A program made the position numbers and the translations under genes. The notes below the pieces were generated by a model that was given only the letters and a program-made list of their open reading frames with translations, made no database searches and was not told the origin of the DNA. This document shows positions 13,358 through 46,070 of a DNA stretch of 52,515 nt, in pieces. The number at the start of each line of letters is the position of its first letter. The stretch's first letter is position 1. Source of the DNA: a virus (Duplodnaviria; Heunggongvirae; Uroviricota; Caudoviricetes); IMG/VR virus record IMGVR_UViG_2724679237_000006, positions 1-52,515 of that record; one strand, written 5' to 3'.

Positions 13358-13359
13358 GC

Positions 13360-25096: not shown

Positions 25097-25408
25097 TTAT
25101 TCGGGAAATAACGCCCGGATATTTCCGGCTATCTGACTGGTTATCTGTGCGGTGGGCGCTGGCTGTAACATGTGGCGTTCTGCCCTGGTTTGTGTCACTG
25201 ATAACGCCTCATCATCAGCCCATGCAGACAGTCGGTAAGCCTCTGCCGGATTCATTTTCAGAAGTGCCAGCCCGGCCAGAAAAGCCACGCGTTGGCCGCT
25301 TTTGCGGGCTTCTGGTGTAAGGCTGTCCAGCCAGTCGCATGCTTTGCCTTCGTTCTTGACGGCGGCTGGCTTCAGATAGAAACTTATTCTTCTGGTTAAT
25401 GTCGCCAT
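25097..25408 (-). CDS. parR: ParR-like centromere-binding adaptor
   Basis: Aligns with plasmid R1 ParR as recalled: ISFYLKP...CDWLDS...ER......A.LAGLAL....P and C-terminal I.GNIRALFP. Confidence 0.8.
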   Translation of the reverse strand: MATLTRRISFYLKPAAVKNEGKACDWLDSLTPEARKSGQRVAFLAGLALLKMNPAEAYRLSAWADDEALSVTQTRAERHMLQPAPTAQITSQIAGNIRALFPE

Positions 25409-25414
25409 GGAGGG

Positions 25415-26374
25415 TTACTCCTTATCCATAGCGTACAGACCGTTAACCAGAGCAAACTGTGGCACCCCGTCTGTGATGAAATTCGCATTGACTCCATAGA
25501 CTTCATGGACTGCGGGTGCCACAATCTCCGCTCCTCCACCGACAACCAGCACCCGCCCGTAACCCGAAAAGCCCGCGAGTGCGCGGATCACGCGTTGTTT
25601 TAGTGTCTCCTCCTTTTCACGAATAACTGCCATCAGGCTGTTGTAATGCGCGTCATTGTGGATGTGCCGGCGCAGCCAGGCTTCATCGTGACGATGTTCA
25701 ATAACGGTACTGGCGACGTGGTGACTGGTACGCATGCCGTTGGCGGCCATCACCGACAACACGGCATCGGTCATCAGGGAAACGCCCACATGTGGATCGC
25801 AAAATACCTGGCTGATGCCTGCCAGTTGCCCCTGAACCTTTGCCACATCCAGCGTTGTTCCGCCTAAATCCACAATCAGCAGAGATTCAAACGGACTCAT
25901 GTCAGCCAGTGCCTTAAAGCCAGCCGGAATGGATTCAGGCATAACCCGCACGTTGCGGATAGTGAATGCTTCACCGTTCTGGTACTCCACAGGGCGCAGG
26001 ACATTCGCTTTTTTGCGGTTGATGTTGGCCATGTCCGGCTGTGCGTTTGTATCGAAATACTCGCTCAGTGGCAGAGTGACAACCACGTCCACTTCCTGTG
26101 GTGTGATACCTGATTTGACCAGCGCGTGATGAATGGCAATGACATTCACATCGCTGTACTGGTATTGCGTGTCGGTCGTCTGGACAAAGCGATCGCTGAC
26201 CGGATCAAAACCATAGCGCACGCCATCAAGCATGTAGTTCGCGGGCTGCGTGCCACCGAACGGCGCAGACCATTCCGACTTGAAGCTGTTCGGGCTGATG
26301 GCGTTGCGGCGTTCGCCGTTCTCAGTCCATGCCAGCTTGATGTTGGTGGAGCCGTCGTCGATGCAAATTTTCAT
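25415..26374 (-). CDS. parM: ParM actin-like segregation ATPase
   Basis: MKICIDDGSTNIKLAW...ISPNSF...YSDVNV.A.HHAL..SG......VD.V.T.PL.E......IDLGGTTLD...GGGAE match R1 ParM/StbA along the full length. Confidence 0.9.
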   Translation of the reverse strand: MKICIDDGSTNIKLAWTENGERRNAISPNSFKSEWSAPFGGTQPANYMLDGVRYGFDPVSDRFVQTTDTQYQYSDVNVIAIHHALVKSGITPQEVDVVVTLPLSEYFDTNAQPDMANINRKKANVLRPVEYQNGEAFTIRNVRVMPESIPAGFKALADMSPFESLLIVDLGGTTLDVAKVQGQLAGISQVFCDPHVGVSLMTDAVLSVMAANGMRTSHHVASTVIEHRHDEAWLRRHIHNDAHYNSLMAVIREKEETLKQRVIRALAGFSGYGRVLVVGGGAEIVAPAVHEVYGVNANFITDGVPQFALVNGLYAMDKE

Positions 26375-31340: not shown

Positions 31341-31544
31341 TTAGCTGTTAGCCAAAGCGTCTTTTAACATCGCCACAAGGTTTACTTCAGGCTTTTCCAT
31401 TTTGGCGCGTTTGGGTCGGATAATAATTCGACCGTCAGCCAACATCTTTTTGCATGTATTAAGAGGGATACCTGTTATCTCTGCATATTTCTGCAGGGAT
31501 ACATAGGGGGCATTCACATTGATATTGATGGTTATACCTGACAT
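31341..31544 (-). CDS. Small HTH DNA-binding protein (Cox/Apl/CII-like regulator candidate)
   Basis: 67 aa; LQKYAEITGIPLNTCKKMLADGRI looks like an HTH. Confidence 0.45.
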   Translation of the reverse strand: MSGITININVNAPYVSLQKYAEITGIPLNTCKKMLADGRIIIRPKRAKMEKPEVNLVAMLKDALANS

Positions 31545-31842: not shown

Positions 31843-32247
31843 ATGAAAAATGATATTGGTCAGAGGTTGCGTGAGGAAAGGGAAAGATTGGGACTTAGTC
31901 AAGTTGCTATGAGCGACATTGGTGGAGTCAAAAAGCTAACTCAGCTTAGATATGAGAAAGGAGATAGCTTTCCTGATGCTGCGTATTTGGCAGCGCTGTC
32001 TCGTTTTGGCCTTGATGTTCAGTATGTTGTGTTGGGAATTCACTCACCTGAAACTTATAACGATGATGAGCAGGAGTTGATTACTCGCTTTCGAGCAGCT
32101 TCGTTAGATGTGAAAAACGCGGTGATCGGGGCTTTAAAAGGTGCGGCCAGTGAAAAGGAAACTCAGCCATCAGGACGTGAGTTAAATATTTCTGGCGGTA
32201 ATAACCGTATCGCTGGGCGTGACTATAACGAAACTAAGGGTAGGTGA
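31843..32247 (+). CDS. Immunity repressor, XRE-family HTH (C/CI-like)
   Basis: N-terminal HTH (LREERERLGLSQVAMSDIGGVKKLTQLRYEKGDSFP); divergent from the early operon and on the same strand as integrase, as for P2 C. Confidence 0.65.
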   Translation: MKNDIGQRLREERERLGLSQVAMSDIGGVKKLTQLRYEKGDSFPDAAYLAALSRFGLDVQYVVLGIHSPETYNDDEQELITRFRAASLDVKNAVIGALKGAASEKETQPSGRELNISGGNNRIAGRDYNETKGR

Positions 32248-32942: not shown

Positions 32943-33290
32943 ATGAAAGTAAAAAATGTTCAACTATTAGTTACTTTTTTATCTATGTTTTCTTTTTCTG
33001 CCGTCGCAATGCCTTTTAAAAATATTGAACGTGAGAGTTTCAATGGGGTATGGCCATTTAATACTGATGAGGTTCAGTTACAGTGTCTAGATGGTAATCC
33101 TTATGTGATGAATTTTGACGATAATAAGTTATATGCGCTTACAGGTTTGGCTCGAATAAAAGGTAAAACATTTGGTGCGTTACCGTTAGATAACAATAAT
33201 CCATTTTGGCTGGATAATGATGCCGCCCCAGGGTTAAAAAAGAATCTGGGAGATGTCACTAAGGCTGCATTTGATTTATGTGATAAGTAA
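32943..33290 (+). CDS. Small secreted protein of unknown function (cargo gene)
   Basis: 115 aa with signal peptide (LLVTFLSMFSFSAVA); AT-rich coding sequence. Confidence 0.45.
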   Translation: MKVKNVQLLVTFLSMFSFSAVAMPFKNIERESFNGVWPFNTDEVQLQCLDGNPYVMNFDDNKLYALTGLARIKGKTFGALPLDNNNPFWLDNDAAPGLKKNLGDVTKAAFDLCDK

Positions 33291-33295
33291 CTAAA

Positions 33296-34297
33296 ATGTC
33301 GGTTCGTAAGATTCCATCAGGTAAATGGCTTTGCGAATGTTATCCTTACGGGGCATCGGGAAAACGTATTCGTAAACAGTTTGCGACAAAAAGTGAGGCG
33401 CTCTCTTATGAGCGCCGTTTAATGAATAGTAGAGTTGGAGACGAGTTTCAAGATGGTTCTGGTCCTCGTCTTTCTGAGTTGGTTGCTCGTTGGTTTGAGA
33501 TGTACGGTAAAACCTTGTCCTCTGGTGCAGAGCGCAAAGTCAAACTTGAGTCTATTTGTTCCAGGCTGGGAGATCCATTTGCTTCTCAGTTTGACAAAAA
33601 TATGTTTGCTACTTATCGGGAAAGGAGGTTATCAGGAGAATGGAATCCCAAGGGGAAGAAAAAACTTAGTGAAGCAACCGTTAATCGCGAGCAGTCATAT
33701 CTACATGCTGTTTTTGCCGAACTGAAGCGCCTTGGGGAGTGGTCTGGTGAAAACCCCCTGACTGGCATTCGCAAGTTTCGTGAGGAAGAAAAGGAATTGG
33801 CGTTTCTGTATGTAGATGAGATTGAACGCCTTCTGATTGCGTGTGATGAGTCACGGAATAAAGATTTGGGGGTTGTTGTCCGTATTGGGCTTGCGACTGG
33901 TGCTCGGTGGAGTGAAGCTGAAGGATTAAAGCAATCTCAAGTGCTGCCCGGTCGAATCACATTTGTTAAAACTAAAGGAAAGAAGAACCGCACTGTACCG
34001 ATTTCACCTCAATTGCAGGCTATGCTTCCTAAAAAACGAGGAGCGTTATTTTCACCATGTTATGAGGCTTTTGACGCTGCAATTAAGAGAGCGAAGATCG
34101 AGCTTCCTGATGGGCAATTAACTCATGTGCTACGTCACACGTTTGCCAGTCATTTTATGATGCGGGGAGGAAATATTCTTGTGTTGCAAAAAATACTGGG
34201 GCATAGCGATATAAAAATGACTATGCGTTATGCGCATTTTGCTCCAGGTCATTTAGAGGCTGCAGTTGAATTGAACCCTTTTGACAATAGAGGGTAA
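33296..34297 (+). CDS. int: Tyrosine integrase, P2 Int-like
   Basis: 333 aa; GKRIRK.F..KSEA, GARWSEA, RITFVKTK..K.RTVPIS, LRHTFASHFMM.GG.I..LQ.ILGH....MTMRYAHFAP match P2 Int as recalled, including catalytic R..H..R..Y. Confidence 0.9.
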   Translation: MSVRKIPSGKWLCECYPYGASGKRIRKQFATKSEALSYERRLMNSRVGDEFQDGSGPRLSELVARWFEMYGKTLSSGAERKVKLESICSRLGDPFASQFDKNMFATYRERRLSGEWNPKGKKKLSEATVNREQSYLHAVFAELKRLGEWSGENPLTGIRKFREEEKELAFLYVDEIERLLIACDESRNKDLGVVVRIGLATGARWSEAEGLKQSQVLPGRITFVKTKGKKNRTVPISPQLQAMLPKKRGALFSPCYEAFDAAIKRAKIELPDGQLTHVLRHTFASHFMMRGGNILVLQKILGHSDIKMTMRYAHFAPGHLEAAVELNPFDNRG

Positions 34298-34403
34298 AAA
34301 GTGGCGATAAAAAGTGACAATAGATTCAAATGGCATCGTATAGAGCTATTTGCAAAGTTAATAAAATCATAAGGTTATGATTTATAAATGGTGGTTGATA
34401 GTT

Positions 34404-34458
34404 TTTAAAATCCCTCGGCGTTCGCGCTGTGCGGGTTCAAGTCCCGCTCCGGGTACCA
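34404..34458 (+). other. 55-nt 3' fragment of a tRNA-Leu gene (anticodon loop to CCA), an attachment-site core
   Basis: tttaaaatccctcggcgttcgcgctgtgcgggttcaagtcccgctccgggtacca matches the 3' portion of an enterobacterial tRNA-Leu (UAA, leuZ-type) as recalled; upstream sequence cannot form the acceptor and D arms. Confidence 0.75.
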
Positions 34459-34502
34459 TGGGAAAGATAAGAATAAAATCAAAGCAATAAGCAGTGTCGT
34501 GA

Positions 34503-34525
34503 AACCACCTTCGGGTGGTTTTTTT
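34503..34525 (+). terminator. Rho-independent terminator after the tRNA fragment
   Basis: Stem aaccacc / ggtggtt, loop ttcg, followed by ttttttt. Confidence 0.7.
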
Positions 34526-34588
34526 GTATCTTCTTTCTCATTTCCGAAGATGCGTCCGAAGATGATTTTTCTCTGGACGCATCATCAT

Positions 34589-35605
34589 TCATTTTCTCTG
34601 GCCACCAACTACGGGCACTACTTTAACTTTCCGGTCATATGCTGCTGTCTGTCGCGGGTTCTTATGCCCGGAAATTGCTTGCTTCTCTTCCAGGCTGCCT
34701 TCCAGATCAGAGATACCTTTTGCTTTCAGATCATGAAATGTGAAGTCTATTTGCAGATGAGGATATTTTTCCTGTGCTGCCGCTTTGACATCACGCCAAC
34801 GAGAGTTAAAACCATCACGGGTATACTTGCCACCGGTAGTTTGATGAATCACAAACAGGCTACTGATTCCCGTTTTTAATGGCAGAGAACGAGCCAGAGC
34901 TATCGCTTTCTGCAGACGAGGCGACCAGGCTTTGATTTGCTTAACGCCGGTTTTTCCCTGACGAATGTAGATCCCGGAATCGAACAGCTGGTCTTTCTGC
35001 AATGAAAGTACATCACTCTGTCTGGCCACGCATAAGTAGGCAATCTCCATTGCTACGCGAACAACATCAGGAGACACTTCATAAACGGCCTGATATTCTT
35101 CATCCGTAATATAACGTTCGCGAGCTTTCTCTTTAAACTGTTTAACTCCCTGACAAGGATTCCTCTGAACATAACCTCGTTCATAACCCCAACGGAATAC
35201 CCGGGACATAAAGCTTTTTTCCCTGTTTGCCTGAGTTCGGCTTGATAAACCGCGTTGATCCATATAGCGCCGAATATGTTCAGGTTTGATTTTATCCGGG
35301 TCGATCTTCCCGAAGACAGGCAGAACTTTTCCGGAATATTTTGTGTAGTCTTTCCGGGTTTCGACTGCCAAATCCATAAAATCAGGGGAGGTCATGAATT
35401 GTTCCGTGAGCGCCTGAAAAGTATTTCTTTCTTTTTCGTCACCGACCGCTTTTTCATATGCCAGCCATACGGCTGATCGTGGTGCATCCAATGCGCACAG
35501 GCGTATCGCTTTGTTATCTTTATTCCTGAATTCGTAGGCCGCTTTGCCCTGGTAAACACGAGGCGGCATCCAGTTATCTGCTGGGTTCTTTCTCTTTCCG
35601 GCCAT
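34589..35605 (-). CDS. int: Tyrosine integrase (lambda Int family) of a second element
   Basis: ORF 34589-35635; N-terminal arm-binding-like MAGKRKNP..NWMPPRVY and C-terminal catalytic region (HDLKAKGISD...GH....TAAYDR). Confidence 0.85.
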   Translation of the reverse strand: MAGKRKNPADNWMPPRVYQGKAAYEFRNKDNKAIRLCALDAPRSAVWLAYEKAVGDEKERNTFQALTEQFMTSPDFMDLAVETRKDYTKYSGKVLPVFGKIDPDKIKPEHIRRYMDQRGLSSRTQANREKSFMSRVFRWGYERGYVQRNPCQGVKQFKEKARERYITDEEYQAVYEVSPDVVRVAMEIAYLCVARQSDVLSLQKDQLFDSGIYIRQGKTGVKQIKAWSPRLQKAIALARSLPLKTGISSLFVIHQTTGGKYTRDGFNSRWRDVKAAAQEKYPHLQIDFTFHDLKAKGISDLEGSLEEKQAISGHKNPRQTAAYDRKVKVVPVVGGQRK

Positions 35606-35837
35606 TAAATATTGCTCCAAAATCAGGTTCATCATCTTTTCGCGTCGTCACCTCCTGTAAATTGCGAAATTTTATTGGGTTCATGAAATGGCCCCAGGTT
35701 GTTTTTGGGTGTCCGTCAGCCCTTTCCATGAAGAAAATTCCAGCCCGGCGAAGAGCCTCACATTGCTTTGATTTAAGTGGGCTTCCCGTCAGCTCGACCA
35801 TTTCTTCTCTGGTGATTATGTCGTGATCGCTTTTCAT
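35574..35837 (-). CDS. Excisionase-like / small DNA-binding protein
   Basis: 87-aa ORF immediately upstream of and overlapping int; ITREEMVELTGSPLKSKQCEALRRAG is HTH-like. Confidence 0.4.
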   Translation of the reverse strand: MKSDHDIITREEMVELTGSPLKSKQCEALRRAGIFFMERADGHPKTTWGHFMNPIKFRNLQEVTTRKDDEPDFGAIFNGRKEKEPSR

Positions 35838-36027
35838 GGTCTTTCCTCATTATGTAGCTTATTGCGTCATCTGCCTTCTGGCAGGCACGGGCAATATCAG
35901 ACTCGGTCAAAGTCTGTTTCCTGACGCTGGCCGACAGTCGACCAATTTTGATATCAAATGCGGAGAGCAGAGTTGCTCCCGGTTGCCATCGCAGCATTGT
36001 GATCCTCCGGTGTCTGGTGAATCGCAA
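35773..36027 (-). CDS. Hypothetical protein
   Basis: 84-aa ORF. Confidence 0.3.
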   Translation of the reverse strand: MRFTRHRRITMLRWQPGATLLSAFDIKIGRLSASVRKQTLTESDIARACQKADDAISYIMRKDHEKRSRHNHQRRNGRADGKPT

Positions 36028-36046
36028 TGCTAGCGATGGTGAGTTT

Positions 36047-36229
36047 TTATTTCTGATTAGGCGTAATCAGTTCTTGTGGGGTGAATGCCGATTTCTCCCG
36101 AGTGACCTTAATGTTTTCTGGCAGGTGTAGCCCAAGTTCGCAGCGGCTCCGTGCTTCAATAATGCCATTGGTACCATCGGCAAGTACCAGGTGAACCGCG
36201 TCACCACGCTTTAATGTGAGTTTAAGCAT
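36047..36229 (-). CDS. Hypothetical protein
   Basis: 60-aa ORF. Confidence 0.3.
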   Translation of the reverse strand: MLKLTLKRGDAVHLVLADGTNGIIEARSRCELGLHLPENIKVTREKSAFTPQELITPNQK

Positions 36230-36798
36230 TAGCGTATCCTCAGTGACCGTTCGCCGCGTTCCATATGTGCGCCTGGTACCGGGTTTAATAACTCGGCTGG
36301 TGGTGTTTCTCCACGCGCCAGTATTTCGGCGGCAACCGCCTCCGCAGATTCAATCACTTCTTTAATGGCTCGCTTGTTTGGTGTAATAACCGTTTCTACA
36401 TCAACAAGTGACACACCCTCATACTCGTCCGGGATCTTATCTTTGTTATCAATAATTACCCGGATAGCCCCCTGTGCATCAGTAAATGTGTTTTTTGCGG
36501 TTTTCAGTTTATCCAGGCCAGCAGCTTGCAGGCAGGCGAGCATATGCTTTCGAATTGCTTTTTCCTTGCCTTCAAAGGACGTCTTACGGGTAGCCAGGCG
36601 AGACATTTCTTCAGCGCAGGTATTGGCATTGCCCTGTAAATTGCGGCAGATGACCATCATGACGTCCAGTTTGTCTCCCAGTTCTCCTTCCATACCTTCA
36701 AGCGTGTCGGCGATCATCTCTGGCGTCAGTTCGTCGGAGGTTTCCAGCAGGTCAATCAGGCTGACATATTCTTTTGCAATAGCGATAGCGGTGCTCAT
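36229..36798 (-). CDS. Gp157-like recombination-associated protein
   Basis: 189 aa acidic protein directly downstream of the SSAP gene; pattern resembles the Sipho_Gp157 family, from memory. Confidence 0.45.
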   Translation of the reverse strand: MSTAIAIAKEYVSLIDLLETSDELTPEMIADTLEGMEGELGDKLDVMMVICRNLQGNANTCAEEMSRLATRKTSFEGKEKAIRKHMLACLQAAGLDKLKTAKNTFTDAQGAIRVIIDNKDKIPDEYEGVSLVDVETVITPNKRAIKEVIESAEAVAAEILARGETPPAELLNPVPGAHMERGERSLRIR

Positions 36799-38507
36799 GC
36801 GGTTTGCTCCTGTGCAGCGGTGAGGGCGGCGAGGCGTTCAGTTTTGATGTCGGTGATACGGCGCAGGCGCGATCCCAGATACGATGAATATTCTTTATCG
36901 CCTTTGGCTTCTGCTGCTTTTCGGTGTACATCAACTTCGCGGGCGATGAGGCCAAATACCTTGTTTACTTCGTTGGTGGTTACCGCGGCGGCCAGCGTAT
37001 TGGCAACGTTGATCAGCTTCTCATCCAGTTCCTTACGAAGACGGGTAGCATCTTCCGCATTCTCGCTGGCATTCTTGATATCAAACTCAGCTTTATTCCT
37101 CTGGCGGTATTCCGGATTGTCGTACAGGCCCATGAAAATATCGGCGCTGAATCCGAGAGGGGATAGCGCTTTCTTAACAGCATCCGTCCAGGATTTCTTC
37201 GGCGCTTCGCCGTCGCTTGTTGGTCCATGTTTAGTATCGTAGATGTACGGAGTGCAACCGTAAGCCGCAGACTCGCCGCGCACCCCATTCAATATGTACC
37301 AGACTCTCACTTTCATGGTGTGGTGTATTTCACATAGGTACCCGCCAACACCGTCTTGAATCAGATCCCATTCTATTTTTTCACCAACCTGTTTTTTGCG
37401 AACTATCGGTGCGCCTTTATCAAAACGCTCTTCCAGCACCTCTACACCCCAGCCAATACCAAACGGCCCAAATTCGCGAGTCGCTTTCATCGCTATATAA
37501 GTGCCGTTGATGGATGTGCCGCCGCCATTCTGAGAGAAAGCACTGGTGAAGCGCTCATCGGTTTTGAATACGTTCTTCCACAATGCCAGGTTATCCGTGT
37601 CATCTGAGTCCTTTAACTCCGTTTCGATAGCTGAGATTGCATTCTGCCGCTTGTGCTCTTCGGTATGGATCCGCTCAACCAGCGCGTCAACGTTCTGCAC
37701 CAGATCCTTTACCTGCTCGCTAAGTTGTTCTTGTGGAGGAGTCTCTTCTGCCGGGGTAATAGCTGCAGGTTCCCTCTGTGATACGGCGTTATTTTCAGGT
37801 ACGTAATACACATGGCGAGGCGTGACAAACTGCTCACGCAACTGCTGCAAACTACGTTCTCCAGCATTCGCTGCTTCGCTTTTTTCGCCCTGATTTGAGG
37901 GTGTTTCTGACATCATCCCATCAATTGAGAATCGTCCGCCGCCGTGGTTGGTGACTTTTACATCATCCTTTGGTGCTGATTCCTTTGGCTTCTCTTCAAC
38001 AGCATTTGCATCACGCTGCCCGTTAGCTTGCAGCCAGTTGTCGATGTGACTGCGCAGGGATTGTGGGAAGTGGTACGTGTCTTTTGCGGGGGCGCTCTGA
38101 ATAACACCGAATACTGATGCGCGGTCATAGGCAAGGATCTGATCCGTTGTGCGCAAGGCCATTGACCAGCGTTTAAAATCTTCCCTGTCCTGACTGATTA
38201 TTTCGTCTGCCGCTTTCAGGATGCTGGGGGTGATTTTTTCCGGGACAACAGGTAACAGGGCGCAGGCAATTTCACGATCCAGTGTGGCGTGAGTCTGTTG
38301 GTAAGGACGTGCGGATGCTGTTTCTGGTTTTACCTCCGGCAGCATTTCATCGCGTTTACCGGGATTCTCTACCCATTTTTTTATAAATTTGGAGATAGTC
38401 CAACTGGTCGGGTTTTGTTCCTGGGTATCGCAACTTGCCAAAATTGCATGTACCAGATTATTCAATCCAGCAATATGCATGTACTCGATGGGCTTACACG
38501 CCACCAT
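36795..38507 (-). CDS. Rad52/Sak-like single-strand annealing protein domain within a long ORF
   Basis: 570-aa ORF; the C-terminal half (GTYIAMKATREFGPFGIGWGVEV...YGCTPY) resembles Sak/Rad52-family SSAPs; the N-terminal half is unassigned. Confidence 0.45.
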   Translation of the reverse strand: MVACKPIEYMHIAGLNNLVHAILASCDTQEQNPTSWTISKFIKKWVENPGKRDEMLPEVKPETASARPYQQTHATLDREIACALLPVVPEKITPSILKAADEIISQDREDFKRWSMALRTTDQILAYDRASVFGVIQSAPAKDTYHFPQSLRSHIDNWLQANGQRDANAVEEKPKESAPKDDVKVTNHGGGRFSIDGMMSETPSNQGEKSEAANAGERSLQQLREQFVTPRHVYYVPENNAVSQREPAAITPAEETPPQEQLSEQVKDLVQNVDALVERIHTEEHKRQNAISAIETELKDSDDTDNLALWKNVFKTDERFTSAFSQNGGGTSINGTYIAMKATREFGPFGIGWGVEVLEERFDKGAPIVRKKQVGEKIEWDLIQDGVGGYLCEIHHTMKVRVWYILNGVRGESAAYGCTPYIYDTKHGPTSDGEAPKKSWTDAVKKALSPLGFSADIFMGLYDNPEYRQRNKAEFDIKNASENAEDATRLRKELDEKLINVANTLAAAVTTNEVNKVFGLIAREVDVHRKAAEAKGDKEYSSYLGSRLRRITDIKTERLAALTAAQEQTA

Positions 38508-39007
38508 GGCATCAAGAACGATGCGGTTAAACGCGTCAACCTCTCCTCACTGTCAGTATCACTGTTGTCGAGCATCTCCAGGTATTCACGCGTCTGCGCA
38601 AGCAATTCACTGTCGACTTCGTTGGCGTCGTGGCTGAACAGCAGAACGGCGGCGAATCGTTCACGAGCCGGCAGTTTCATCAGGTCGTTAACTTGTGCGA
38701 TATCTGCTGAACCGCTATCTACAACGGGGGTGTTAACTACCCATTTTTCGCCATCAAAACTGTGTTCTGTGGCGAACGTCTCATCAAACTCACCAACGCC
38801 TGGGCGCGGTTGGCCCGGGGCATCTTCCCAGATTTTAGGTTTGAAATAGTTGTCGCCGTGGTCAGGGTAGGCTTCCCACAATTTGCCGATGATGATGTTC
38901 TCGGCAACTTTTTTGTTAGGGGCGTCGATGGCGATGGCCAGCGCCGGGATCGCGCCGTTTTTGAGCGCGCCTTTTTTCGCTTCTAACAAGCCGTTAAAAA
39001 TGGTCAT
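38462..39007 (-). CDS. Hypothetical protein (possibly the N-terminal part of the downstream gene)
   Basis: 181-aa ORF overlapping the next ORF by 46 nt in another frame. Confidence 0.35.
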   Translation of the reverse strand: MTIFNGLLEAKKGALKNGAIPALAIAIDAPNKKVAENIIIGKLWEAYPDHGDNYFKPKIWEDAPGQPRPGVGEFDETFATEHSFDGEKWVVNTPVVDSGSADIAQVNDLMKLPARERFAAVLLFSHDANEVDSELLAQTREYLEMLDNSDTDSEERLTRLTASFLMPWWRVSPSSTCILLD

Positions 39008-39037
39008 TGGTCTTTCCTCATTACAGGTCAGTGGTCT

Positions 39038-39358
39038 TTAGTAGGGGATTTCATCAGTATCTGGCGTGTATTCGATGCAAAGTAACTGCTGGATTTTGTC
39101 ATCGATAGCAGCAATACGCTGTTGGGCGTCGGCGACTGTTTTCTGTTTTTGTTCACGCAGTTGCTCGACCTGTAAACCGATGATGTCGATTGGCTGGGGC
39201 TGGTTGACGGTAATTTCAATTTCGCGGCTTTCCAGAAGGATGTACCTGTCTGGAAAATTTTTTGACATATCAACAGTCGCAACAAGCAGCTTTTCGTGGC
39301 TGAAAGTTGAAGTTGCATAATGAATAAAGAGTGTTACTGGGATGGTGCGCGCTTCCAT
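39038..39358 (-). CDS. Hypothetical protein
   Basis: 106-aa ORF. Confidence 0.3.
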   Translation of the reverse strand: MEARTIPVTLFIHYATSTFSHEKLLVATVDMSKNFPDRYILLESREIEITVNQPQPIDIIGLQVEQLREQKQKTVADAQQRIAAIDDKIQQLLCIEYTPDTDEIPY

Positions 39359-39505
39359 AGCGACTCCTTGGTAATGTATACTCAGAGCCGATCAGCGAAT
39401 ATTGATCAGCTTCCATAGCGTCAGTGTCGTTGGTCTTTCCTCATCACAAGTTTGGTCACTTGTGATAAATCCGAATGGTTTGGTCGCCGTTCGGGGTAAC
39501 TGGCC

Positions 39506-39530
39506 CGCCTTGTGCGGGTCTTTTGCTATC
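39506..39530 (+). terminator. Orphan plus-strand terminator-like hairpin
   Basis: cccgc-cttgt-gcggg followed by tcttttgct, with no plus-strand ORF upstream. Confidence 0.4.
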
Positions 39531-40204
39531 TAAAGGGTGCCGGTTACGTTTCCGGCGTCGTCATGTTTCCATCACGACCGTACAGGGCTGGTCTTTCCTG
39601 TTTTGAGCTGGTCAGGCTCATGGTCAACGCTGGTCAGGCGTGGTACTTCCTCCGGTCTTTCCCTGGTGTCACGCTGCGGGTTTGGCCTCTCCTGTTGGGG
39701 ACTCAGGCACAGCGATAAAACCTGGCTGTGTGAAAAAATGGCCCATCGTGCGGACTGGGCAAAGACTAAACACAGCAAATTGATGATGGGCGCCCGGAAT
39801 CGAACCGGGTAACGGGCAGGGAGTTCCCGTTAAACACCTGTTCACCACAACCGGGAGCGCACTCCGCCATTTCAAAATTTAACGACAAAGCTCAAAGTTG
39901 AGTCGATGAAGTGCGCTCTCGTGTTGTAGCCAGGACTCTTCCCTGGTGGTCACACCGTATCGCCTTGATGGTGAATCAATCGCTCATACCTGGCTGTGGC
40001 TTGCACATTCCGGCTACCTGCTATGGAGACAACGCGTTAAGGCTCCGCTTCCATCCAGACCGCTTCGACACATGTGCCATATGCCGGTGAAGTCTTTCCC
40101 TCTGTCATCGTGCTGTCGGCGACCCGAAGAATTAAGTTCCGGGATTTTTCAACACGCCCGGTCGTGCTACCTTTAATGCCCACACAACAAAAAAGGATTT
40201 TCTT

Positions 40205-40438
40205 ATGTCAGAGCTTGAACAACTTAAAGATGAACTGGCTTTACTTAAAAAGGAGCTAAAGTCTCACCAGGTAATACTGTCTGCGTTGGTTGGTCGTATG
40301 AGCTACGAGGAGAAATCCGACCTATCAAAGCATGTTGCAAAAGCGAAATCAGAGCTTTATCCGGGTGATGATTTCAGCCTGGGAATATTCAATAAGTTGC
40401 TTCTAGTAACTGATTACAAACCGATTCCCAGAAAGTAG
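40205..40438 (+). CDS. Small coiled-coil protein (hypothetical)
   Basis: 77-aa ORF (ELEQLKDELALLKKELK). Confidence 0.3.
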   Translation: MSELEQLKDELALLKKELKSHQVILSALVGRMSYEEKSDLSKHVAKAKSELYPGDDFSLGIFNKLLLVTDYKPIPRK

Positions 40439-40613
40439 CCTCATCCATTTGCGCGCCATCAAACTTATCGATGGCGCCACTTAATATCGCAAGAACATCA
40501 CCTGCATCCTTAGCGTTGAGTTCACCCGAGATCTTGCGAAGATTCTCGACCAAGGCCAAAGCTACTGGACCAACGGCACTTCCTGCCGCAATTGAAACCT
40601 TACGAAGTTCCAT
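40389..40613 (-). CDS. Hypothetical protein
   Basis: 74-aa ORF downstream of the repressor gene. Confidence 0.3.
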   Translation of the reverse strand: MELRKVSIAAGSAVGPVALALVENLRKISGELNAKDAGDVLAILSGAIDKFDGAQMDEATFWESVCNQLLEATY

Positions 40614-40764
40614 CTCTTCTCCTTTCCCTTAACGCCGGGTAGCGGAACGTGTTTCTGAACAACTGCCGCTGGGTAAGCGTTGTTGATGGAATGAATATAA
40701 CTAAAGGTAATTTTATGTGCAAGGTGTTTTATAACAAAAGTTAGTATTTGGGGTAAAAATAAAG

Positions 40765-40800
40765 GCAATGCATTGAAAACATTGCCTTTATTTTATTTTT
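40765..40800. terminator. Bidirectional terminator at the 3' end of the repressor gene
   Basis: Stem aaggcaatg / cattgcctt followed by tattttattttttgg; A/T runs on both sides. Confidence 0.65.
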
Positions 40801-41206
40801 TGGTGGGGGTTAGTTTCTTTCTGGTAACCAGTAACTCTTCAAATAAACGATTAAAGTTTTCAACTTTATCTTCTAATTCAATTAGTTGCTTTTCTTTTTC
40901 TGACTCGGGTAATGAATCAAATAACTCTAACAATCTTTTTTGACGTGAATCCAGCTCTGTTGGTAATTCGTCTACCGGAGTTGGCGCCTGGTCTTCGTCA
41001 CCAAAAAGCAGCCATGTGGCAGAACACTTAAGTGCATTGGCCAAAGCCAGCAAGTTCTGACCCTTTGGTTCATTTTGTCCGCTTTCCCATTTAAAAACGC
41101 TCACACTCGATCTTCCAACCATATCAGCAAGCTGTTGTTGGGTTAGACCAAGCTGTTTGCGTCTTTGAGATAAACGGTCGCTAAGCATCAAATTCTTCAT
41201 CCTCAT
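40793..41206 (-). CDS. CI-like repressor, XRE-family HTH (no S24 peptidase domain)
   Basis: 137 aa; LTQQQLADMVGRSSVSVFKWESGQNEP HTH; divergent from a Cro-like gene. Confidence 0.75.
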   Translation of the reverse strand: MRMKNLMLSDRLSQRRKQLGLTQQQLADMVGRSSVSVFKWESGQNEPKGQNLLALANALKCSATWLLFGDEDQAPTPVDELPTELDSRQKRLLELFDSLPESEKEKQLIELEDKVENFNRLFEELLVTRKKLTPTKK

Positions 41207-41219
41207 AATATAAGTTAAC

Positions 41220-41248
41220 TTGACATAACTTTCGTTAGTATTTATGTT
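41220..41248 (+). promoter_or_regulatory. Candidate sigma70 promoter for the cro-like gene, with operator dyads
   Basis: TTGACA (41220-41225), 17-bp spacer, TATGTT (41243-41248). Palindrome AAGTTAACTT overlaps the -35; GTTAG-N11-CTAAC dyad overlaps the -10. Confidence 0.5.
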
Positions 41249-41274
41249 GCTAACAAAAGTTACGTGGAGGGATT

Positions 41275-41472
41275 ATGAAAACAGAGACGGTTATTAGTTT
41301 TTTTGGTTCAAAGACAGCCACAGCCAAGGTGTTGGGTATATCTCAAGTGGCGGTTACTCGTTGGGGGGCAACAGTTCCTGAAAAGCGAGCTGCTCGACTC
41401 GACCATATCACTAACGGAGCACTGAAATATGACCCGACTTTTTACGATGTTCCAAAACATGAAAAAGCTTAG
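41275..41472 (+). CDS. Cro-like HTH protein (YdaS-like)
   Basis: 65 aa; KTATAKVLGISQVAVTRW HTH; first gene of the rightward operon. Confidence 0.65.
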   Translation: MKTETVISFFGSKTATAKVLGISQVAVTRWGATVPEKRAARLDHITNGALKYDPTFYDVPKHEKA

Positions 41473-41531
41473 CAAAGGGCGGCTTATTACATCTGATTAA
41501 GCGTAATCAATTTTTAGCGACAGGAGACGCT

Positions 41532-42008
41532 ATGGAAAACCCAGAGGAATTACAAAAAGAGATTTTGACCTGGGCGGCAAGGGCAGGGCAGGAACTCGTC
41601 ACGATTGAAATCTGCCGGACCTGGTTCAGACAGGGACGCAATGATGAGTTGAAACTACATGAATTTGAGGATGCGGACGGCAACGTGGACTGGAGAGCCA
41701 TCAACAACAATCGGCAGAAAATTTTTCGCTGGTTACGTGGCGAAACAACGGCGGCGCGCCGAAAAACTCAGGTGCTGGCCAGTGTGATGAAAGCCGTGCT
41801 ACCAGCAGAACGGCGGGCACGTCTGGAGTCGCCGGGCGATCCCGTTTTGCTGGCAACGCTGGCGGCAAAAGAAGGGGTGGAAGCGATTAACGCTGTACAT
41901 CTCCACTTCGCGCCAGAGTTAACTATTCAGGAAATTGACGAAGCAATAGCGGCGCTGGTAGCGACGCGAGGAGCAGTGATACGCACTGCGCAAGACCACC
42001 ATGCATGA
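41532..42008 (+). CDS. YdaT-like protein (CII-position regulator/toxin family)
   Basis: 158 aa following the Cro-like gene; FRWLRGETT...RK.Q.L pattern resembles Rac prophage YdaT from memory. Confidence 0.45.
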   Translation: MENPEELQKEILTWAARAGQELVTIEICRTWFRQGRNDELKLHEFEDADGNVDWRAINNNRQKIFRWLRGETTAARRKTQVLASVMKAVLPAERRARLESPGDPVLLATLAAKEGVEAINAVHLHFAPELTIQEIDEAIAALVATRGAVIRTAQDHHA

Positions 42009-42047
42009 GCGCCTGACCAGCGTTTAACTTATACCGAGGAAAGACCG

Positions 42048-42272
42048 ATGTTAAGACATATTGACCGCATTACCTGGCGTAACGGCTGGCACCTGAATGG
42101 GCGCCCGGCACATGTTGCAGAGATCCGCCCCATATTCGATGGCCGCGTCGCAGCTGCACGTTCTGTGTGGGAAAAGTACGAAGAAGAAAAAGCGAAACTG
42201 CGTGAGCAAAATCTCTCTGGCGCTGCCTATGAGGCTGGCTGTCGCGTTCTCTCAGAGGCTTTGGGCATATGA
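42048..42272 (+). CDS. Hypothetical protein
   Basis: 74-aa ORF. Confidence 0.3.
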   Translation: MLRHIDRITWRNGWHLNGRPAHVAEIRPIFDGRVAAARSVWEKYEEEKAKLREQNLSGAAYEAGCRVLSEALGI

Positions 42273-43279
42273 ACATCCTCCCGTTACTTGATAGACCCAT
42301 AGCCTTCCAGAGAAGTTTTATCCGTCTTGAAATGGGCGTGACTGCCGCATTGTTTCTGTCGCAGTTGACGTACTGGACAAACAGAACAACTGACGACGGC
42401 TGGGTATATAAAACCCAGGATGAGTGGGAAGAGGAAACAGGGCTTTCACGATACGAGCAGGAGGGCGCGCGCAAAAAACTACGTGGTCTCGGCGTCTTGC
42501 TGGAACGTAAACAGGGCTTGCCTGCCAGGCTGTACTACAAAATCGATAATGATGTGTTGTGCCAGCTACTTACGTCCGCACACAAGGATGCGGAAAAACC
42601 ACATACAGGTGAGGGGAAAACCACCAGGCCTGTACGTGGAAAACCAACAAACATTCTTACAGAGAATACAACAGAGAATACTACAGAGATTATAGATCCC
42701 CCTAACCCCCAGGGGGGAGACGGCGACGAGACCATTCTCGCTGATGCTCAAAAAGCACTGGCTAGTTACAACGAGCAAACCAACACGCGTTGTCGCGACG
42801 TTAAACCGTTCGTTACGCTGCTGACTCCGACAAAAACGCGAACCGGTTATACCGTCGCGGAAATCGAACTGGTGATCCGCTGGGTGTTGGCAACGTGGCA
42901 CCGTCGTAGCGGTAGTATGCCCAAAATCGCAAATATTTGCCGTGTAGGACGCTTTGATGGCTACTTGGCTGACGCTGAGGTCTGGGCTGTCGCTGAGGCT
43001 GCTGTAGACCCCTCTGAGGTCGTTAACGGCTACAACGAGATTTTCGCTGATTTACTGCCTGAGGCTGAAATCGACACAGACCGCCGCCGGGCGATCATGA
43101 AACTACTGGCACACATGCGGTCGCAAACTCTCGGGGCGTTCCTGGGGTATTTCGAAAAATTCCGTGATACCGCACCTGAATTTTATTTCGGTGGTGAGGA
43201 TCGCGACGGCTGGCGGGCAGGGTTTGATTACCTGATGAAACCGGAAACGCTGCGTAAAACCAGGGAGGGGGCATTATGA
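42269..43279 (+). CDS. Replication initiation / replisome organiser protein (O-like)
   Basis: 336 aa immediately upstream of, and overlapping, the DnaB-like helicase gene; family assignment is by context. Confidence 0.5.
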   Translation: MNILPLLDRPIAFQRSFIRLEMGVTAALFLSQLTYWTNRTTDDGWVYKTQDEWEEETGLSRYEQEGARKKLRGLGVLLERKQGLPARLYYKIDNDVLCQLLTSAHKDAEKPHTGEGKTTRPVRGKPTNILTENTTENTTEIIDPPNPQGGDGDETILADAQKALASYNEQTNTRCRDVKPFVTLLTPTKTRTGYTVAEIELVIRWVLATWHRRSGSMPKIANICRVGRFDGYLADAEVWAVAEAAVDPSEVVNGYNEIFADLLPEAEIDTDRRRAIMKLLAHMRSQTLGAFLGYFEKFRDTAPEFYFGGEDRDGWRAGFDYLMKPETLRKTREGAL

Positions 43280-44667
43280 ATCCGGAAGAACTGGAAGCGA
43301 TCGTTCTCGCTGGTCTGATTAACGGTGGCGCGACGCCTGACGCGTTTGATGTGATTGCCACCACTCCGGAGGAAGCTTTCAGCATTGTGTTTCACCGCCG
43401 CGCTTTCAGCGAAATCAAAAAGCAGGCACTGGCGAACGGCATGATCGACATGTTGTTTATCAGCGAAGCGCTGGGCGGTTCCAGCCTTGCGGATCTGTCT
43501 CAAATATCCCGGATCCCGGCAACGGTACCGAATCTGAAAGGCTATGCCGGGAAAATGGTGCGGGCATGGCGGAGCCGCAAAATGGCGGCATTGTTGCAAT
43601 CTGGCGCGGATGGTATCCGTAACGCTGTAAACCAGAGTCAGCGTGATGAGGTTATTGAATCTCATGTTGCTCAGGTGCTGGATATGAGCGCCGCTACCGG
43701 CACAGTCCAGCCGGTACACATCAAAGAGCTGTTACCGCTCTACATTGACACCGTTGATAAACGGATGTCTGGCGACGCGCAGGAAATGATGCTGAAAACC
43801 GGAGTCGAGGATCTGGATGTCGCCCTGGGCGGTATCAACATGACCGACCTTGTTGTGGTTGCCGGTCGTCCAGGCATGGGGAAAACGGAATTTACCCTGA
43901 AGATTATCGATGGCGTTACCGCAGATGGCGGCGGCGCACTGTTTTTCAGCATGGAAATGGGCGCTCAGCAGATTGTTGAACGTACCGTTGCCGGGGCTGG
44001 GAATATGTCCACGTCGCGTCTGCGTAATCCAAAAGAAATGGACGATGAGGATTTGACCAGATTAACCGCCGCGCTTGCAATCATGCAGGATCGCGATATC
44101 TGGATTGTTGATGCCACTGATTTGACGATTGAGCAGATCCGCGCCATTGCAGAGACTCATAAACGCCGTTATCCGCACCTGAAGTTGATTGGTGTTGATT
44201 ACATGGGCCTGATCAAAAAACCGAAGGCCGAGCGCCACGATCTCGCTGTCGGGCATATCTCCCGCAACATGAAGACTATGGCCATGCGTCTGCATACCCC
44301 TGTTTTTGCTCTTAGCCAGCTTTCCCGCCAGGTGGATTCTCGACCTGCTGGCCAGCGTCGCCCGGTGATGTCGGACCTGCGCGATTCCGGCAGTGTTGAG
44401 CAGGACGCTGACAGCATTTTGTTTTTGTACCGCGATGAAGTTTACACACCTGATTCACCTGCAAAGGGTATCGCCGAGGTGATTATCGGTAAAAACCGTT
44501 CTGGCGGGGCAGGTGAAATTATTTATCAGGAATTCCGGAATGGGCATTTCCTGCCAATTGATCAACACGTAGCACGCGAAAAATTACGCATCCAGAAGGA
44601 GGCAGAGCAACCGAGAAAACGTGAAAAACGGTATTCAAACAAAAACTTTAATACGGACCCCTTTTAA
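43276..44667 (+). CDS. Replicative DNA helicase (DnaB family)
   Basis: 463 aa; Walker A GRPGMGKTEF, RecA-like C-terminal domain (SQLSRQVDSR, DLRDSGSVEQDADSILFLYRDE). Confidence 0.85.
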   Translation: MNPEELEAIVLAGLINGGATPDAFDVIATTPEEAFSIVFHRRAFSEIKKQALANGMIDMLFISEALGGSSLADLSQISRIPATVPNLKGYAGKMVRAWRSRKMAALLQSGADGIRNAVNQSQRDEVIESHVAQVLDMSAATGTVQPVHIKELLPLYIDTVDKRMSGDAQEMMLKTGVEDLDVALGGINMTDLVVVAGRPGMGKTEFTLKIIDGVTADGGGALFFSMEMGAQQIVERTVAGAGNMSTSRLRNPKEMDDEDLTRLTAALAIMQDRDIWIVDATDLTIEQIRAIAETHKRRYPHLKLIGVDYMGLIKKPKAERHDLAVGHISRNMKTMAMRLHTPVFALSQLSRQVDSRPAGQRRPVMSDLRDSGSVEQDADSILFLYRDEVYTPDSPAKGIAEVIIGKNRSGGAGEIIYQEFRNGHFLPIDQHVAREKLRIQKEAEQPRKREKRYSNKNFNTDPF

Positions 44668-44705
44668 CCACGCCTGACCAGCGTGAAATAACCGAGGAAA
44701 GACCA

Positions 44706-45116: not shown

Positions 45117-45117
45117 T

Positions 45118-45883: not shown

Positions 45884-46070
45884 GTGAATTGAAAATACGT
45901 CGCAAGGTAATAGCACGCGTTAAAAATCTATTACCAGTGCCTGTCAAATATCGTTTTTGTGGTGGGAATGTACGGATTGGTACGGATGTATGGTGATTGC
46001 GGAGTGACGTAAAACGAATCGTTGTGGGTGTAATATCGTCAATATCATTGGTTTCCCGGAGGGAAAGGAC

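Follow-up and report, generated by a model that had tools for sequence, protein, structure and literature searches.

How do two different tyrosine integrase genes come to lie on either side of a fragment of a tRNA-Leu gene? The window, by which we mean the whole stretch of 52,515 nucleotides analysed (positions 1 to 52,515 of the IMG/VR virus record IMGVR_UViG_2724679237_000006), was originally predicted to contain such a pair around a 55-nt tRNA-Leu 3' fragment, and all three features are present where they were placed. The two integrases share 27% identity over only 123 aa and come from different subfamilies, one P2-type and the other lambda-related. We conclude with high confidence that two phages lie in tandem at leuZ, each of which entered by means of its own integrase, and that this region is the junction inside their array; the fragment of tDNA lies in a block between one integrase gene for each element, at 33296-34297 on the + strand and 34589-35635 on the - strand.

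The block between the integrases comprises the following.

34404-34527, + strand: att core region, a 124-bp block of identity common to the chromosome, the P2-like phage and the lambdoid phage.
34404-34458, + strand: 3' part of leuZ (tRNA-Leu UAA), 55 nt, by exact match.
34459-34525, + strand: full-length copy (67 nt) of 3'ETS-leuZ, from the K-12 annotation, alignment identity and a terminator scan.

The exact match is to the last 55 nt of E. coli leuZ, beginning with the first anticodon-loop base and finishing with CCA, and the same letters are found in the annotated leuZ of K-12 and in the intact leuZ of strains 1439 and SK1144; the sequence occurs once in the window and in none of 100 shuffles. 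These 55 nt had been taken for the shared sequence, which is correct for the leuZ part, but full identity with the K-12 chromosome extends beyond leuZ to 34527, giving a 124-bp block that includes 3'ETS-leuZ. Positions 34459-34525 correspond to K-12 1991748-1991814 (reverse strand), the sRNA 3'ETS-leuZ (b4759), at 67 of 67 nt, and no Rfam family exceeded the threshold for this interval. A hairpin previously likened to one expected after a tRNA operon was recovered by the terminator scan as an intrinsic terminator within the 3'ETS-leuZ copy (stem at 34501-34522, T run to 34525), and is indeed the terminator of the glyW-cysT-leuZ operon. K-12 supplies the uninterrupted locus needed for comparison; there, leuZ is followed by 3'ETS-leuZ and then by yecA, i.e., an empty site, and only one copy of the block is present in most genomes sampled. 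ARAGORN identified no complete tRNA in the whole window, in keeping with the prediction that the intact copy lies outside it.

When ten att sites are aligned, the E. coli copies of the block are identical over exactly 124 bp, the sole exception among them being a 1-nt deletion inside the block in the record of phage 520873, and beyond the block the sites diverge on both sides according to the adjoining element. Identity starts at TTTAAAA, in the leuZ anticodon loop, and ends 2 nt past the T run of the terminator in the P2-like phage, the ST131-type lambdoid prophage and phage mEp390 alike. Since all E. coli copies are identical, the crossover can be placed only somewhere within 34404-34527; it probably took place in or near the anticodon loop. 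The block in the window is a composite middle junction, closing the P2-like prophage on its right and opening the lambdoid prophage on its left.

To the left of the block lies the first of these elements, with the following features.

About 7-34403 (no strand): complete-looking P2-like (Peduoviridae) prophage, colinear with the prophage of strain 1439.
1-6, + strand: last 6 nt (TTTTGT) of the left, tRNA-proximal block copy, by alignment to strain 1439.
23-52, + strand: candidate repeats for arm-type Int binding, in the int-distal arm, by repeat scan.
31341-31544, - strand: Cox-like excisionase/repressor (phrog_575, E 1.2e-27).
31843-32247, + strand: HTH repressor, in the position of a C-type immunity repressor, by PHROG matches.
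33296-34297, + strand: P2-type tyrosine integrase reading toward the block, by Pfam and homology to P2 Int.
34298-34403, + strand: integrase-proximal att arm of the P2-like prophage, with repeats GTGGCGAT at 34301-34308 and GTGACAAT at 34314-34321.

This prophage extends from an arm beside the gpD tail gene to the integrase-proximal arm. Strain 1439 has a colinear P2-like prophage, 88-95% identical, in which P2-type tail, capsid, terminase and replication genes are annotated. Pfam matches within the window copy include gpD, gpA, ParM and an invertase, and Escherichia phage 520873 (Xuanwuvirus) matches its right end at 99.2% identity. The integrase, as predicted, is P2-type and reads toward the fragment from the left; it contains Int_N (8.5e-32) and Phage_integrase (2.5e-22) domains and matches P2 Int from end to end at 38% identity (333 aa, E 1e-74), while its similarity to lambda Int is not significant (E 2.4). 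Its motifs ATGARWSE, HVLRHTF, LGH and RYAHF align with the catalytic motifs of P2 and lambda Int, and in this alignment the catalytic Arg, His-x-x-Arg, His and Tyr are all present. The family phrog_575 is described as 'Cox-like excisionase and repressor', and the counterpart of 31341-31544 in phage 520873 is annotated alike; the gene at 31843-32247 matches PHROG families of transcriptional regulators and repressors and carries a helix-turn-helix annotation in strains 1439 and CEA601S.

In the integrase-distal arm, GTGGCGAT occurs at 34-41 and 45-52, with 11-bp spacing, and a related sequence, aTGGCGgT, at 23-30; the repeats of the integrase-proximal arm form a family (D1) of the type TAAAAAGTGGCGA / TAAAAAGTGACAA. 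There are eight occurrences of GTGGCGAT in the window against 1.97 expected, three of them within the two att arms, and repeats of this type are probably where the P2-like Int would bind in both arms. Phage 520873, strain 1439 and strain CEA601S all have the same arm as the window has at 34298-34403, and it is unlike the 5' half of leuZ. The gene context is that of a P2-like phage, with a Cox/repressor, gpA, gpD and candidate GTGGCGAT-type repeats on either side of the core.

At the left edge of the window the original prediction needs correcting. No second att copy had been seen in the first 1.28 kb, but bases 1-6 (TTTTGT) are the end of the left block copy. Window positions 1-7680 align to the leuZ locus of strain 1439 (locus L001) from position 5402, where leuZ ends at 5338 and the block at 5407; the window opens with the last 6 nt of the block and continues into the P2-like arm. 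An intact leuZ probably lies about 63-150 nt beyond this edge; both it and a third block on the right fall outside the window and are placed by reference to colinear relatives. The fragment in the window would be the displaced 3' part of that gene, given that in strain 1439 an intact leuZ, oriented alike, stands at the opposite end of the P2-like prophage, and in strain 510016 the left end of the P2-like phage is contiguous with an annotated tRNA-Leu.

The second element begins immediately to the right of the block.

34528-52515 (no strand): left part of a lambdoid prophage, running off the right window edge; early, immunity and replication genes plus variable cargo.
34528-34588 (no strand): integrase-proximal att arm of the lambdoid prophage, with direct and inverted repeats.
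34589-35635, - strand: lambdoid tyrosine integrase, longest ORF 348 aa, by Pfam and PDB matches and likeness to mEp390 Int.
35574-35837, - strand: excisionase-like protein (DUF4224) of the lambdoid prophage (Pfam DUF4224, 1.1e-14; phrog_1266 'excisionase', 5.4e-35).

A lambda-type integrase had been predicted 130 bp to the right of the 55-nt fragment and on the other strand, and its stop codon lies at just this distance. The ORF contains Phage_int_M and Phage_integrase domains (residues 1-73 being covered by no Pfam domain), all six of its PDB matches are lambda Int (best E 1.5e-09), and BLASTP gives 25% identity to lambda Int over 219 aa (E 4e-13). An identical gene in RefSeq starts 10 codons later, at window position 35605, and encodes 338 aa; at the DNA level the integrase is 100% identical to the gene adjoining leuZ in ST131-type genomes. 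Arg-I, the hairpin Lys, His and Tyr are all retained, but the canonical Arg-II (lambda R311, in His-x-Leu-Arg) is absent; this protein and its relatives in mEp390, ZF40 and ST64B instead have FHDLKAKG, with Lys at the position of lambda R311. As a side observation, this clade of lambdoid integrases appears to function with Lys where a catalytic Arg is expected.

The lambdoid arm contains TCCGAAGATG twice as a direct repeat (34543-34552 and 34555-34564) together with an imperfect inverted repeat (34546-34562 / 34570-34586). These repeats are also found beside the intact leuZ in SK1144 and in every tandem locus, and probably have an att function; no copy of the TCCGAAGATG motif occurs in the far arm of the lambdoid prophage, as seen in SK1144. 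Further to the right the lambdoid part encodes Gp157, an HTH repressor, YdaT, a DnaB-type helicase, ORF6N, a methyltransferase and an SMEK_N-domain protein; Sipho_Gp157 is the sole Pfam match of the ORF at 36229-36798, and the ORF at 36795-38507 has none. The recombination, immunity and replication genes expected here were thus found in part, since the HTH repressor, YdaT and helicase represent immunity and replication but no gene could be assigned to recombination. Strains SK1144 and 1439 have a leuZ prophage of 42.5 kb that terminates in another block copy, some 120 bp ahead of yecA. Parts of the window region are 98-99% identical to this prophage and three segments have no match in it; the lambdoid prophage of the window is a mosaic variant of it.

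The proposal that both elements occupy the same tRNA-Leu gene is upheld by complete E. coli genomes, since both use leuZ. The P2-type integrase adjoins the block in 507 of 5426 such genomes, while the lambdoid integrase directly adjoins an intact, annotated tRNA-Leu in 430 of the 5426, which speaks, on the evidence of relatives, against the second integrase recognising an unrelated att site. Two of the 5426, strain 1439 and strain CEA601S (both RefSeq chromosomes), have the tandem junction, as do two IMG/VR contigs; about 40 genomes would be expected to have it were the elements independent of each other. A junction in the reverse order occurs in none of the 5426 genomes and in no IMG/VR contig, a comparison of small numbers (two genomes and two viral contigs against none) whose cases are perhaps not independent. 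Among complete genomes, the best match to the 3-kb junction region of the window is 99.1% identical, and the rest of the window matches less closely. Further copies of the core, sought in relatives of both elements, were duly found. In strain 1439 the order is pgsA-glyW-cysT-leuZ / P2-like / block / lambdoid / block / yecA, with three block copies, i.e., at the intact leuZ, at the middle junction and at the junction by yecA; in SK1144, which has the lambdoid prophage only, there are two, the 124-bp block being present at both prophage ends.

We propose a mechanism in which each phage would have been inserted by its own tyrosine integrase into the 3' part of leuZ, at the end of glyW-cysT-leuZ. 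The attP of both phages carries the same 124 bp as the chromosome, that is, leuZ from the anticodon loop to CCA, the sRNA of the 3' spacer and the terminator. Insertion would therefore rebuild tRNA, sRNA and terminator at the tRNA-proximal end, and would leave a promoter-less duplicate at the distal end. The tRNA-proximal junction would then still be a perfect target after the first insertion, so that a second phage could insert there, and the outcome would be leuZ / P2-like / block / lambdoid / block / yecA. Since each prophage retains its own integrase, an excisionase-type gene and arms, each should be able to excise independently, as far as gene content can indicate.

The order of arrival cannot be read from the window itself because all block copies are identical, but it can be approached through strain 1439. 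Its chromosomal flanks are 100% identical to those of SK1144 over 6.8 kb and its lambdoid prophage is 99.95% identical over 42.4 kb, so that strain 1439 is SK1144 with a P2-like phage added between leuZ and the lambdoid prophage; in this strain the P2-like phage came second, beside the intact tRNA. Because the lambdoid prophage of the window is a mosaic variant, this argument carries over by analogy only, and we lean modestly towards the P2-like phage having come last in the window also. The same array could have been built in the opposite order, with the P2-like phage resident first and the lambdoid phage entering its distal junction, which would have been a hybrid site, flanked by a P2-like arm to its left and by chromosome to its right. 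We regard this as possible but doubtful. The final structure would be identical whichever phage came first, a second element may enter either junction, with integrases differing in their preference for recombinant att sites (PMC7192596), and the lambdoid mosaic of the window differs from the clonal prophage of 1439 and SK1144 and may have had a different history. Against this, the chromosomal left half of the core is missing from the distal junction, where GATAGTT stands instead of AAGGGAT immediately before the anticodon loop, and strain 1439, the sole case in which ancestry is readable, had the lambdoid prophage first.

Sequential integration at leuZ must also be weighed against import of the array, wholly or partly, by homologous recombination through the flanks or blocks (e.g., following transduction or conjugation). 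RecA could act on the three identical direct repeats of 124 bp and on the conserved pgsA and yecA flanks, and the same type of array recurs in several genomes; however, the junctions are exactly those that site-specific integration predicts, with no bases extra or missing around the block, the flanks of 1439 are 100% identical to those of SK1144 with no sign of imported DNA, and an imported array must still first have arisen by integration somewhere. We consider import improbable. Much less probable again is an assembly artefact, in which short reads from two prophages were misjoined through the 124-bp repeat; although a repeat in two or three copies is the classic place for a misjoin and the start of the window nearly coincides with a block boundary, this junction recurs in the complete RefSeq chromosomes of 1439 and CEA601S and in two IMG/VR contigs, and two prophages at leuZ in one genome must in any case be in tandem, such that a misjoin would affect only their order. 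That the fragment is a decayed tRNA pseudogene or chance similarity, and the recombination site of no integrase, has a negligible chance of being correct, for it has only the lack of a complete tRNA in the window in its favour and is opposed by exact matches of 55 nt to leuZ and 124 nt to the K-12 locus, by the absence of shuffle matches, by single lysogens, in which the block marks the exact boundary of either element, and by its annotation as attP in phage mEp390.

If sequential integration is accepted, the array provides a clean case of two unrelated integrases competing for one tRNA site, although it opens no new question; tandem arrays at tRNA genes are already known, a well-documented and ordinary arrangement. 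Its practical value lies in calling prophage boundaries, where the two elements should be annotated separately and split at 34404-34527, and in judging which prophage can excise. Separately, it is conceivable, though we think it rather unlikely, that the scarcity of the tandem and the missing reverse order arise because resident P2-like prophages exclude lambdoid phages, rather than from population structure.

Every phage that uses leuZ in E. coli rebuilds a known regulatory sRNA and, in arrays, duplicates it. In published work 3'ETS-leuZ acts as a sponge for RyhB and RybB. The extra copy at 34459-34525 begins 161 nt beyond the P2-type int gene and reads in the same sense, and no terminator is predicted between the two. 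This middle copy is without the promoter of the tRNA operon and the 5' half of leuZ, and so would be transcribed only by read-through from the P2-type int gene. The att block of leuZ-targeting phages holds a complete copy of this sRNA and may, though we think it rather unlikely, do more than patch the tRNA. If true, lysogeny would exchange the 3'ETS-leuZ allele of the host for that of the phage, and prophage transcripts could supply the copy at 34459-34525, thereby enlarging the 3'ETS-leuZ pool.

Both elements have close relatives that occur singly. Phage 520873 (NC_049344) is 99.2% identical to window positions 33000-34527 and then continues into yecA; it is the same type of phage as the P2-like prophage of the window, integrated alone at leuZ, although its record has the integrase split into two ORFs where the window copy is intact. 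The module follows the layout of P2 itself, the integrase reading toward the core after a divergent repressor and cox, with two extra ORFs between, and paired direct repeats occur in both arms of either phage. However, the P and P' arms of P2 have annotated tandem TGTGGACA repeats where the window phage has GTGGCGAT-like sequences, and P2 has an annotated attP core of 27 bp where the window phage has a 124-bp block of tRNA and spacer. The preferred chromosomal site of P2 is not known to be a tRNA gene.

On the lambdoid side, the integrase of the window is 64% identical to that of mEp390 (NC_019721) and 63% to that of Pectobacterium phage ZF40, while the remainder of both phage genomes is unlike the window prophage. 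Downstream of int, mEp390 has a 121-bp feature labelled 'putative prophage insertion site (attP)' that is 88.5% identical to window 34404-34524, with divergence mostly in the spacer; in ZF40, 56 nt of the same tRNA-Leu part lie beside int and the match goes no further than the tRNA. ST131-type strains, such as SK1144 and the O25b:H4-ST131 strain 751, have a leuZ prophage with 100% DNA identity to window 34404-36000, i.e., block, int and excisionase, directly after an intact leuZ, but it is single there and in tandem in the window. leuZ is also a conserved prophage integration site in Shiga-toxin-producing E. coli O121:H19 (PMC8767318), in which the prophages are single as far as the text of that study shows; the 507 genomes in which the P2-type integrase adjoins the block include some of O121.

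The closest parallel in organisation comes from the tandem islands catalogued by Williams and co-workers with Islander and TIGER, Islander having recorded 125 tandems among 3919 islands (PMC4383910), and the entry of a second element at one regenerated core is a described mechanism (PMC7192596). As in the window, each element in these tandems has its own integrase and a displaced 3' tDNA fragment, the fragment lies in the orientation of the gene, and attP is centred on the anticodon. The array described here does not differ from them in kind; its regenerated block simply holds, in addition, a complete copy of 3'ETS-leuZ.

The tRNA-Leu 3' fragment between the two integrases is part of a longer attachment-site block at which two prophages abut, a P2-like prophage on the left (7-34403) and a lambdoid prophage on the right, which begins at 34528 and runs past the right edge of the window. 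The features of this junction are as follows.

Features of the junction
33296-34297, + strand: P2-type tyrosine integrase (Pfam Int_N, Phage_integrase)
34404-34458, + strand: last 55 nt of leuZ (tRNA-Leu UAA), an exact match to E. coli leuZ
34459-34525, + strand: full copy of 3'ETS-leuZ, the 67 nt 3' of leuZ that are annotated as small regulatory RNA b4759 in K-12
34501-34522: terminator-like hairpin from a terminator scan, with the T run next to it
34589-35635, - strand: lambdoid tyrosine integrase (Pfam Phage_int_M, Phage_integrase), 130 bp past the tRNA end

The original prediction of a 55-nt tRNA-Leu fragment was correct for the tRNA part, which occurs once in the window and in none of 100 shuffles, but it understated the extent of the identity: in an alignment of ten att sites, identity with the empty site of K-12 continues beyond the tRNA end and covers 124 bp (34404-34527), from the first base of the anticodon loop to 2 nt beyond the terminator T run. 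ARAGORN called no complete tRNA anywhere in the window, as expected when only half of the gene is present, and the intact tRNA was rightly placed outside it. The hairpin had been likened to the terminator of a tRNA operon, and the match to 3'ETS-leuZ implies that it is in fact the terminator of the glyW-cysT-leuZ operon, or a copy of it brought by a phage. Rfam, searched at a permissive threshold over 33800-35000, returned no above-threshold family for 3'ETS-leuZ; its sole two matches, sroD and STnc130, were both sub-threshold and were rejected as chance matches driven by the terminator.

Both integrases are of the predicted kinds. The left one is 38% identical to P2 Int over its full length (E 1e-74) and, on this and its domains, classes as a P2-type integrase; the Xer and integron models of NCBIfam scored far under their cut-offs for this protein and were not used. 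The right one, on the other strand, finds lambda Int as all of its solved-structure matches, with 25% identity (E 4e-13), and Pfam detects no N-terminal arm-binding domain in it; by sequence it is related to lambda Int, though no close member. Between the two, identity is 27% over 123 aa, a remote relationship only. Where lambda Int has its catalytic Arg-II (R311, in His-x-Leu-Arg), the lambdoid integrase has a Lys, within FHDLKAK at residues ~300-306. So do its relatives in mEp390, ZF40 and ST64B; Arg stands there in the integrases of Burkholderia phage KL3, lambda and P2 and in the window's P2-type protein. The other catalytic residues (Arg-I, the hairpin Lys, His, Tyr) are conserved. Next comes an excisionase-type gene (DUF4224, phrog_1266), and beyond it lie Gp157, an HTH repressor, YdaT and a DnaB-type helicase. 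The lambdoid immunity and replication genes that had been described are present as the repressor, YdaT and the helicase, but no recombination gene is identifiable among those following the excisionase-type gene. For three proteins, the lambdoid integrase, the DUF4224 protein and Cox, NCBIfam returned no match.

Each element is found at leuZ by itself. The block followed by this lambdoid integrase and excisionase occurs in 430 of 5426 complete E. coli genomes, with a tRNA-Leu annotated under the match; in the lambdoid-only strain SK1144 one copy of the block lies at each end of a 42.5-kb prophage, and yecA comes next. In 507 of the same genomes the block comes after the P2-type integrase. Over 33000-34527 the window is 99.2% identical to the deposited Escherichia phage 520873 (Peduoviridae, Xuanwuvirus); this record runs on into yecA, which indicates that the P2-like phage was at leuZ alone, and in strain 510016 the other end of the P2-like type is contiguous with an annotated tRNA-Leu. 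Overall, 7179 copies of the block in 5425 complete E. coli genomes imply that roughly one third of genomes are occupied at leuZ, a gene already listed as a prophage site in O121:H19 strains (PMC8767318). The tRNA part adjoins a 63% identical integrase in Pectobacterium phage ZF40, and the lambdoid phage mEp390 has an annotated attP of 121 bp that matches the block at 88.5% identity and adjoins an integrase sharing 64% with that of the window. Aligned with the block (2999-3119 versus window 34404-34527), the tRNA part of the mEp390 attP has just two changes from E. coli, which form a compensatory T-stem pair (GCGGG/CCCGC to GTGGG/CCCAC); in the rest of the attP, spacer and terminator, divergence is far greater, with the hairpin kept. 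Lysogeny by an mEp390-like phage would swap the 3' half of the host tRNA and the sRNA allele.

The tandem state itself recurs in complete genomes. In E. coli strain 1439 a 3-kb stretch with the same junction is 99.1% identical to the window, and the order is pgsA, glyW, cysT, intact leuZ, P2-like prophage, block, lambdoid prophage, block, yecA; the block is thus present three times in strain 1439. CEA601S has the junction with a decayed lambdoid integrase, and two IMG/VR contigs carry it at 98.1-98.7% identity to the window. To the left of the block, the P2-like near arm (the integrase-proximal att arm) is shared with phage 520873, strain 1439 and CEA601S; to the right, the lambdoid near arm lies directly after intact leuZ in SK1144. 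These comparative data exclude the half-tRNA being a pseudogene unrelated to the integrases. As originally stated, the window contains no recognisable second att copy: only positions 1-6 (TTTTGT), the final 6 nt of the tRNA-proximal block, are present, and the P2-like far arm (the arm at the prophage's other end) starts at base 7. As the window is colinear with strain 1439 from base 1, the second copy is placed by this comparison just beyond its left edge, and a third copy past the right edge, since the window ends within the lambdoid prophage. That the window starts 6 nt before the end of the tRNA-proximal block, nearly at the left end of the P2-like prophage, suggests that the window or contig was cut at a prophage/repeat boundary and not randomly.

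Tandems of this kind are few. The forward junction totals two genomes and two IMG/VR contigs, which are small numbers, and none was found in species-representative genomes; a search for the opposite arrangement, with the lambdoid far arm joined through the block to the P2-like far arm, had no hit in the 5426 E. coli genomes or in IMG/VR contigs. Both types occur in tandem in two genomes against ~40 expected under independence, an expectation that ignores clonal structure (many genomes being of ST131 type), and clonal population structure probably explains much of the rarity. Four copies of the block are present in E. coli O111:H21 strain 15A (NZ_CP077477.1), where a P2-like prophage lies at the distal end, adjoining yecA.

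This arrangement is best explained by insertion of the Campbell type, with two different tyrosine integrases acting on a single anticodon-centred tRNA site. The attP of each phage carries the 124-bp block, such that insertion would restore leuZ, the spacer sRNA 3' of it and the terminator on the proximal side, with a duplicate staying on the distal side. To the right of the anticodon loop, the proximal junction beside a resident prophage cannot be told from the empty site over at least 124 bp, and its left half is still chromosomal; at the distal junction phage arm sequence stands in place of the 5' anticodon stem; consequently, a newcomer should meet a perfect target beside the intact tRNA. 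Because the block copies are all identical, the crossover position can only be inferred; the differences in mEp390-type blocks could be used for crossover mapping.

The order of arrival is readable in one case, strain 1439. Its chromosomal flanks are 100% identical to those of SK1144 over 6.8 kb and its lambdoid prophage is 99.95% identical over 42.4 kb, while K-12 differs from the flanks of both by 1.4-2.7%. Strain 1439 therefore combines SK1144-like flanks with the SK1144-like lambdoid prophage, so the P2-like phage entered a strain already lysogenic for the lambdoid phage, inserting between leuZ and that prophage. By analogy, the P2-like phage would have arrived last in the window too; the analogy is needed because three segments of the window's lambdoid prophage, a mosaic variant, find no match in 1439 or SK1144. 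The opposite order in the window's own strain, for which this mosaicism leaves room but to which the history of strain 1439 runs counter, seems to us possible though rather doubtful. That the array was imported by homologous recombination, or that the 124-bp repeat caused a misjoin, is unlikely, since the same exact junctions are seen again in complete genomes and the flanks of strain 1439 show no change. A phage-plasmid in place of a chromosome, which a ParM cassette in the P2-like prophage might suggest, was rejected for the junction, since both att arms and the left end have their matches in prophages located at leuZ in chromosomes. Sequential integration at the same tRNA-Leu gene, as originally predicted, is supported by the presence of both elements at leuZ in other genomes and by the tandem in strain 1439.

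Each prophage has an integrase and a Cox or excisionase-type gene, and each would on this gene content be able to excise from the hybrid middle junction. Repeats of the GTGGCGAT type are present in both P2-like arms, in a layout like that of the annotated P2 arm repeats, and TCCGAAGATG occurs twice in the lambdoid near arm only, with none in the SK1144 far arm on either strand at up to 2 mismatches; both kinds of repeat are candidate arm sites.

Elsewhere the two prophages carry the following features.

Features elsewhere in the two prophages
8446-9069, - strand: serine invertase (Resolvase, HTH_7), beside the P2-like tail-fibre genes
25097-26374, - strand: segregation cassette, ParM (StbA_N, ParM_N) and Plasmid_stab_B
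48429-49094: methyltransferase
49422-50321, - strand: SMEK_N-domain protein
50855-52207: 450-aa ORF with no Pfam match

The segregation cassette of the P2-like prophage is of plasmid type and has the portal gene on one side and gpA, the replication gene, on the other; at this spot strain 1439 also carries the ParM cassette, together with an S8 peptidase and an AAA ATPase that the window lacks. The invertase and tail-fibre region is where window and strain 1439 diverge (9039-13600), and looks like a Gin/Cin-type tail-fibre switch. The unmatched lambdoid segments (40133-41491, 42684-44662 and 47390-52515, the last holding the methyltransferase, the SMEK_N-domain protein and the 450-aa ORF) may be variable cargo; otherwise the prophage is 98-99% identical to the leuZ prophage of 1439 and SK1144.

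Since the block contains the whole of 3'ETS-leuZ, every leuZ-targeting E. coli phage rebuilds this sRNA and leaves a duplicate. The middle copy is in sense orientation 161 nt downstream of the P2-type integrase gene, with no terminator predicted between them. A literature search found no paper naming 3'ETS-leuZ together with 'integrase', and the least ordinary points of the locus are a whole annotated sRNA inside the att block and its extra copies in the array.

Integrative elements arrayed in tandem at tRNA and tmRNA genes have been documented as a class, with 125 tandems among 3919 islands, 2083 of the islands having an anticodon-centred attP (PMC4383910), and a second element can integrate into one regenerated core (PMC7192596). 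The window shows what defines this class, apart from the second element's distal fragment, which is beyond the window, and the arrangement is an ordinary one, of a kind already described.
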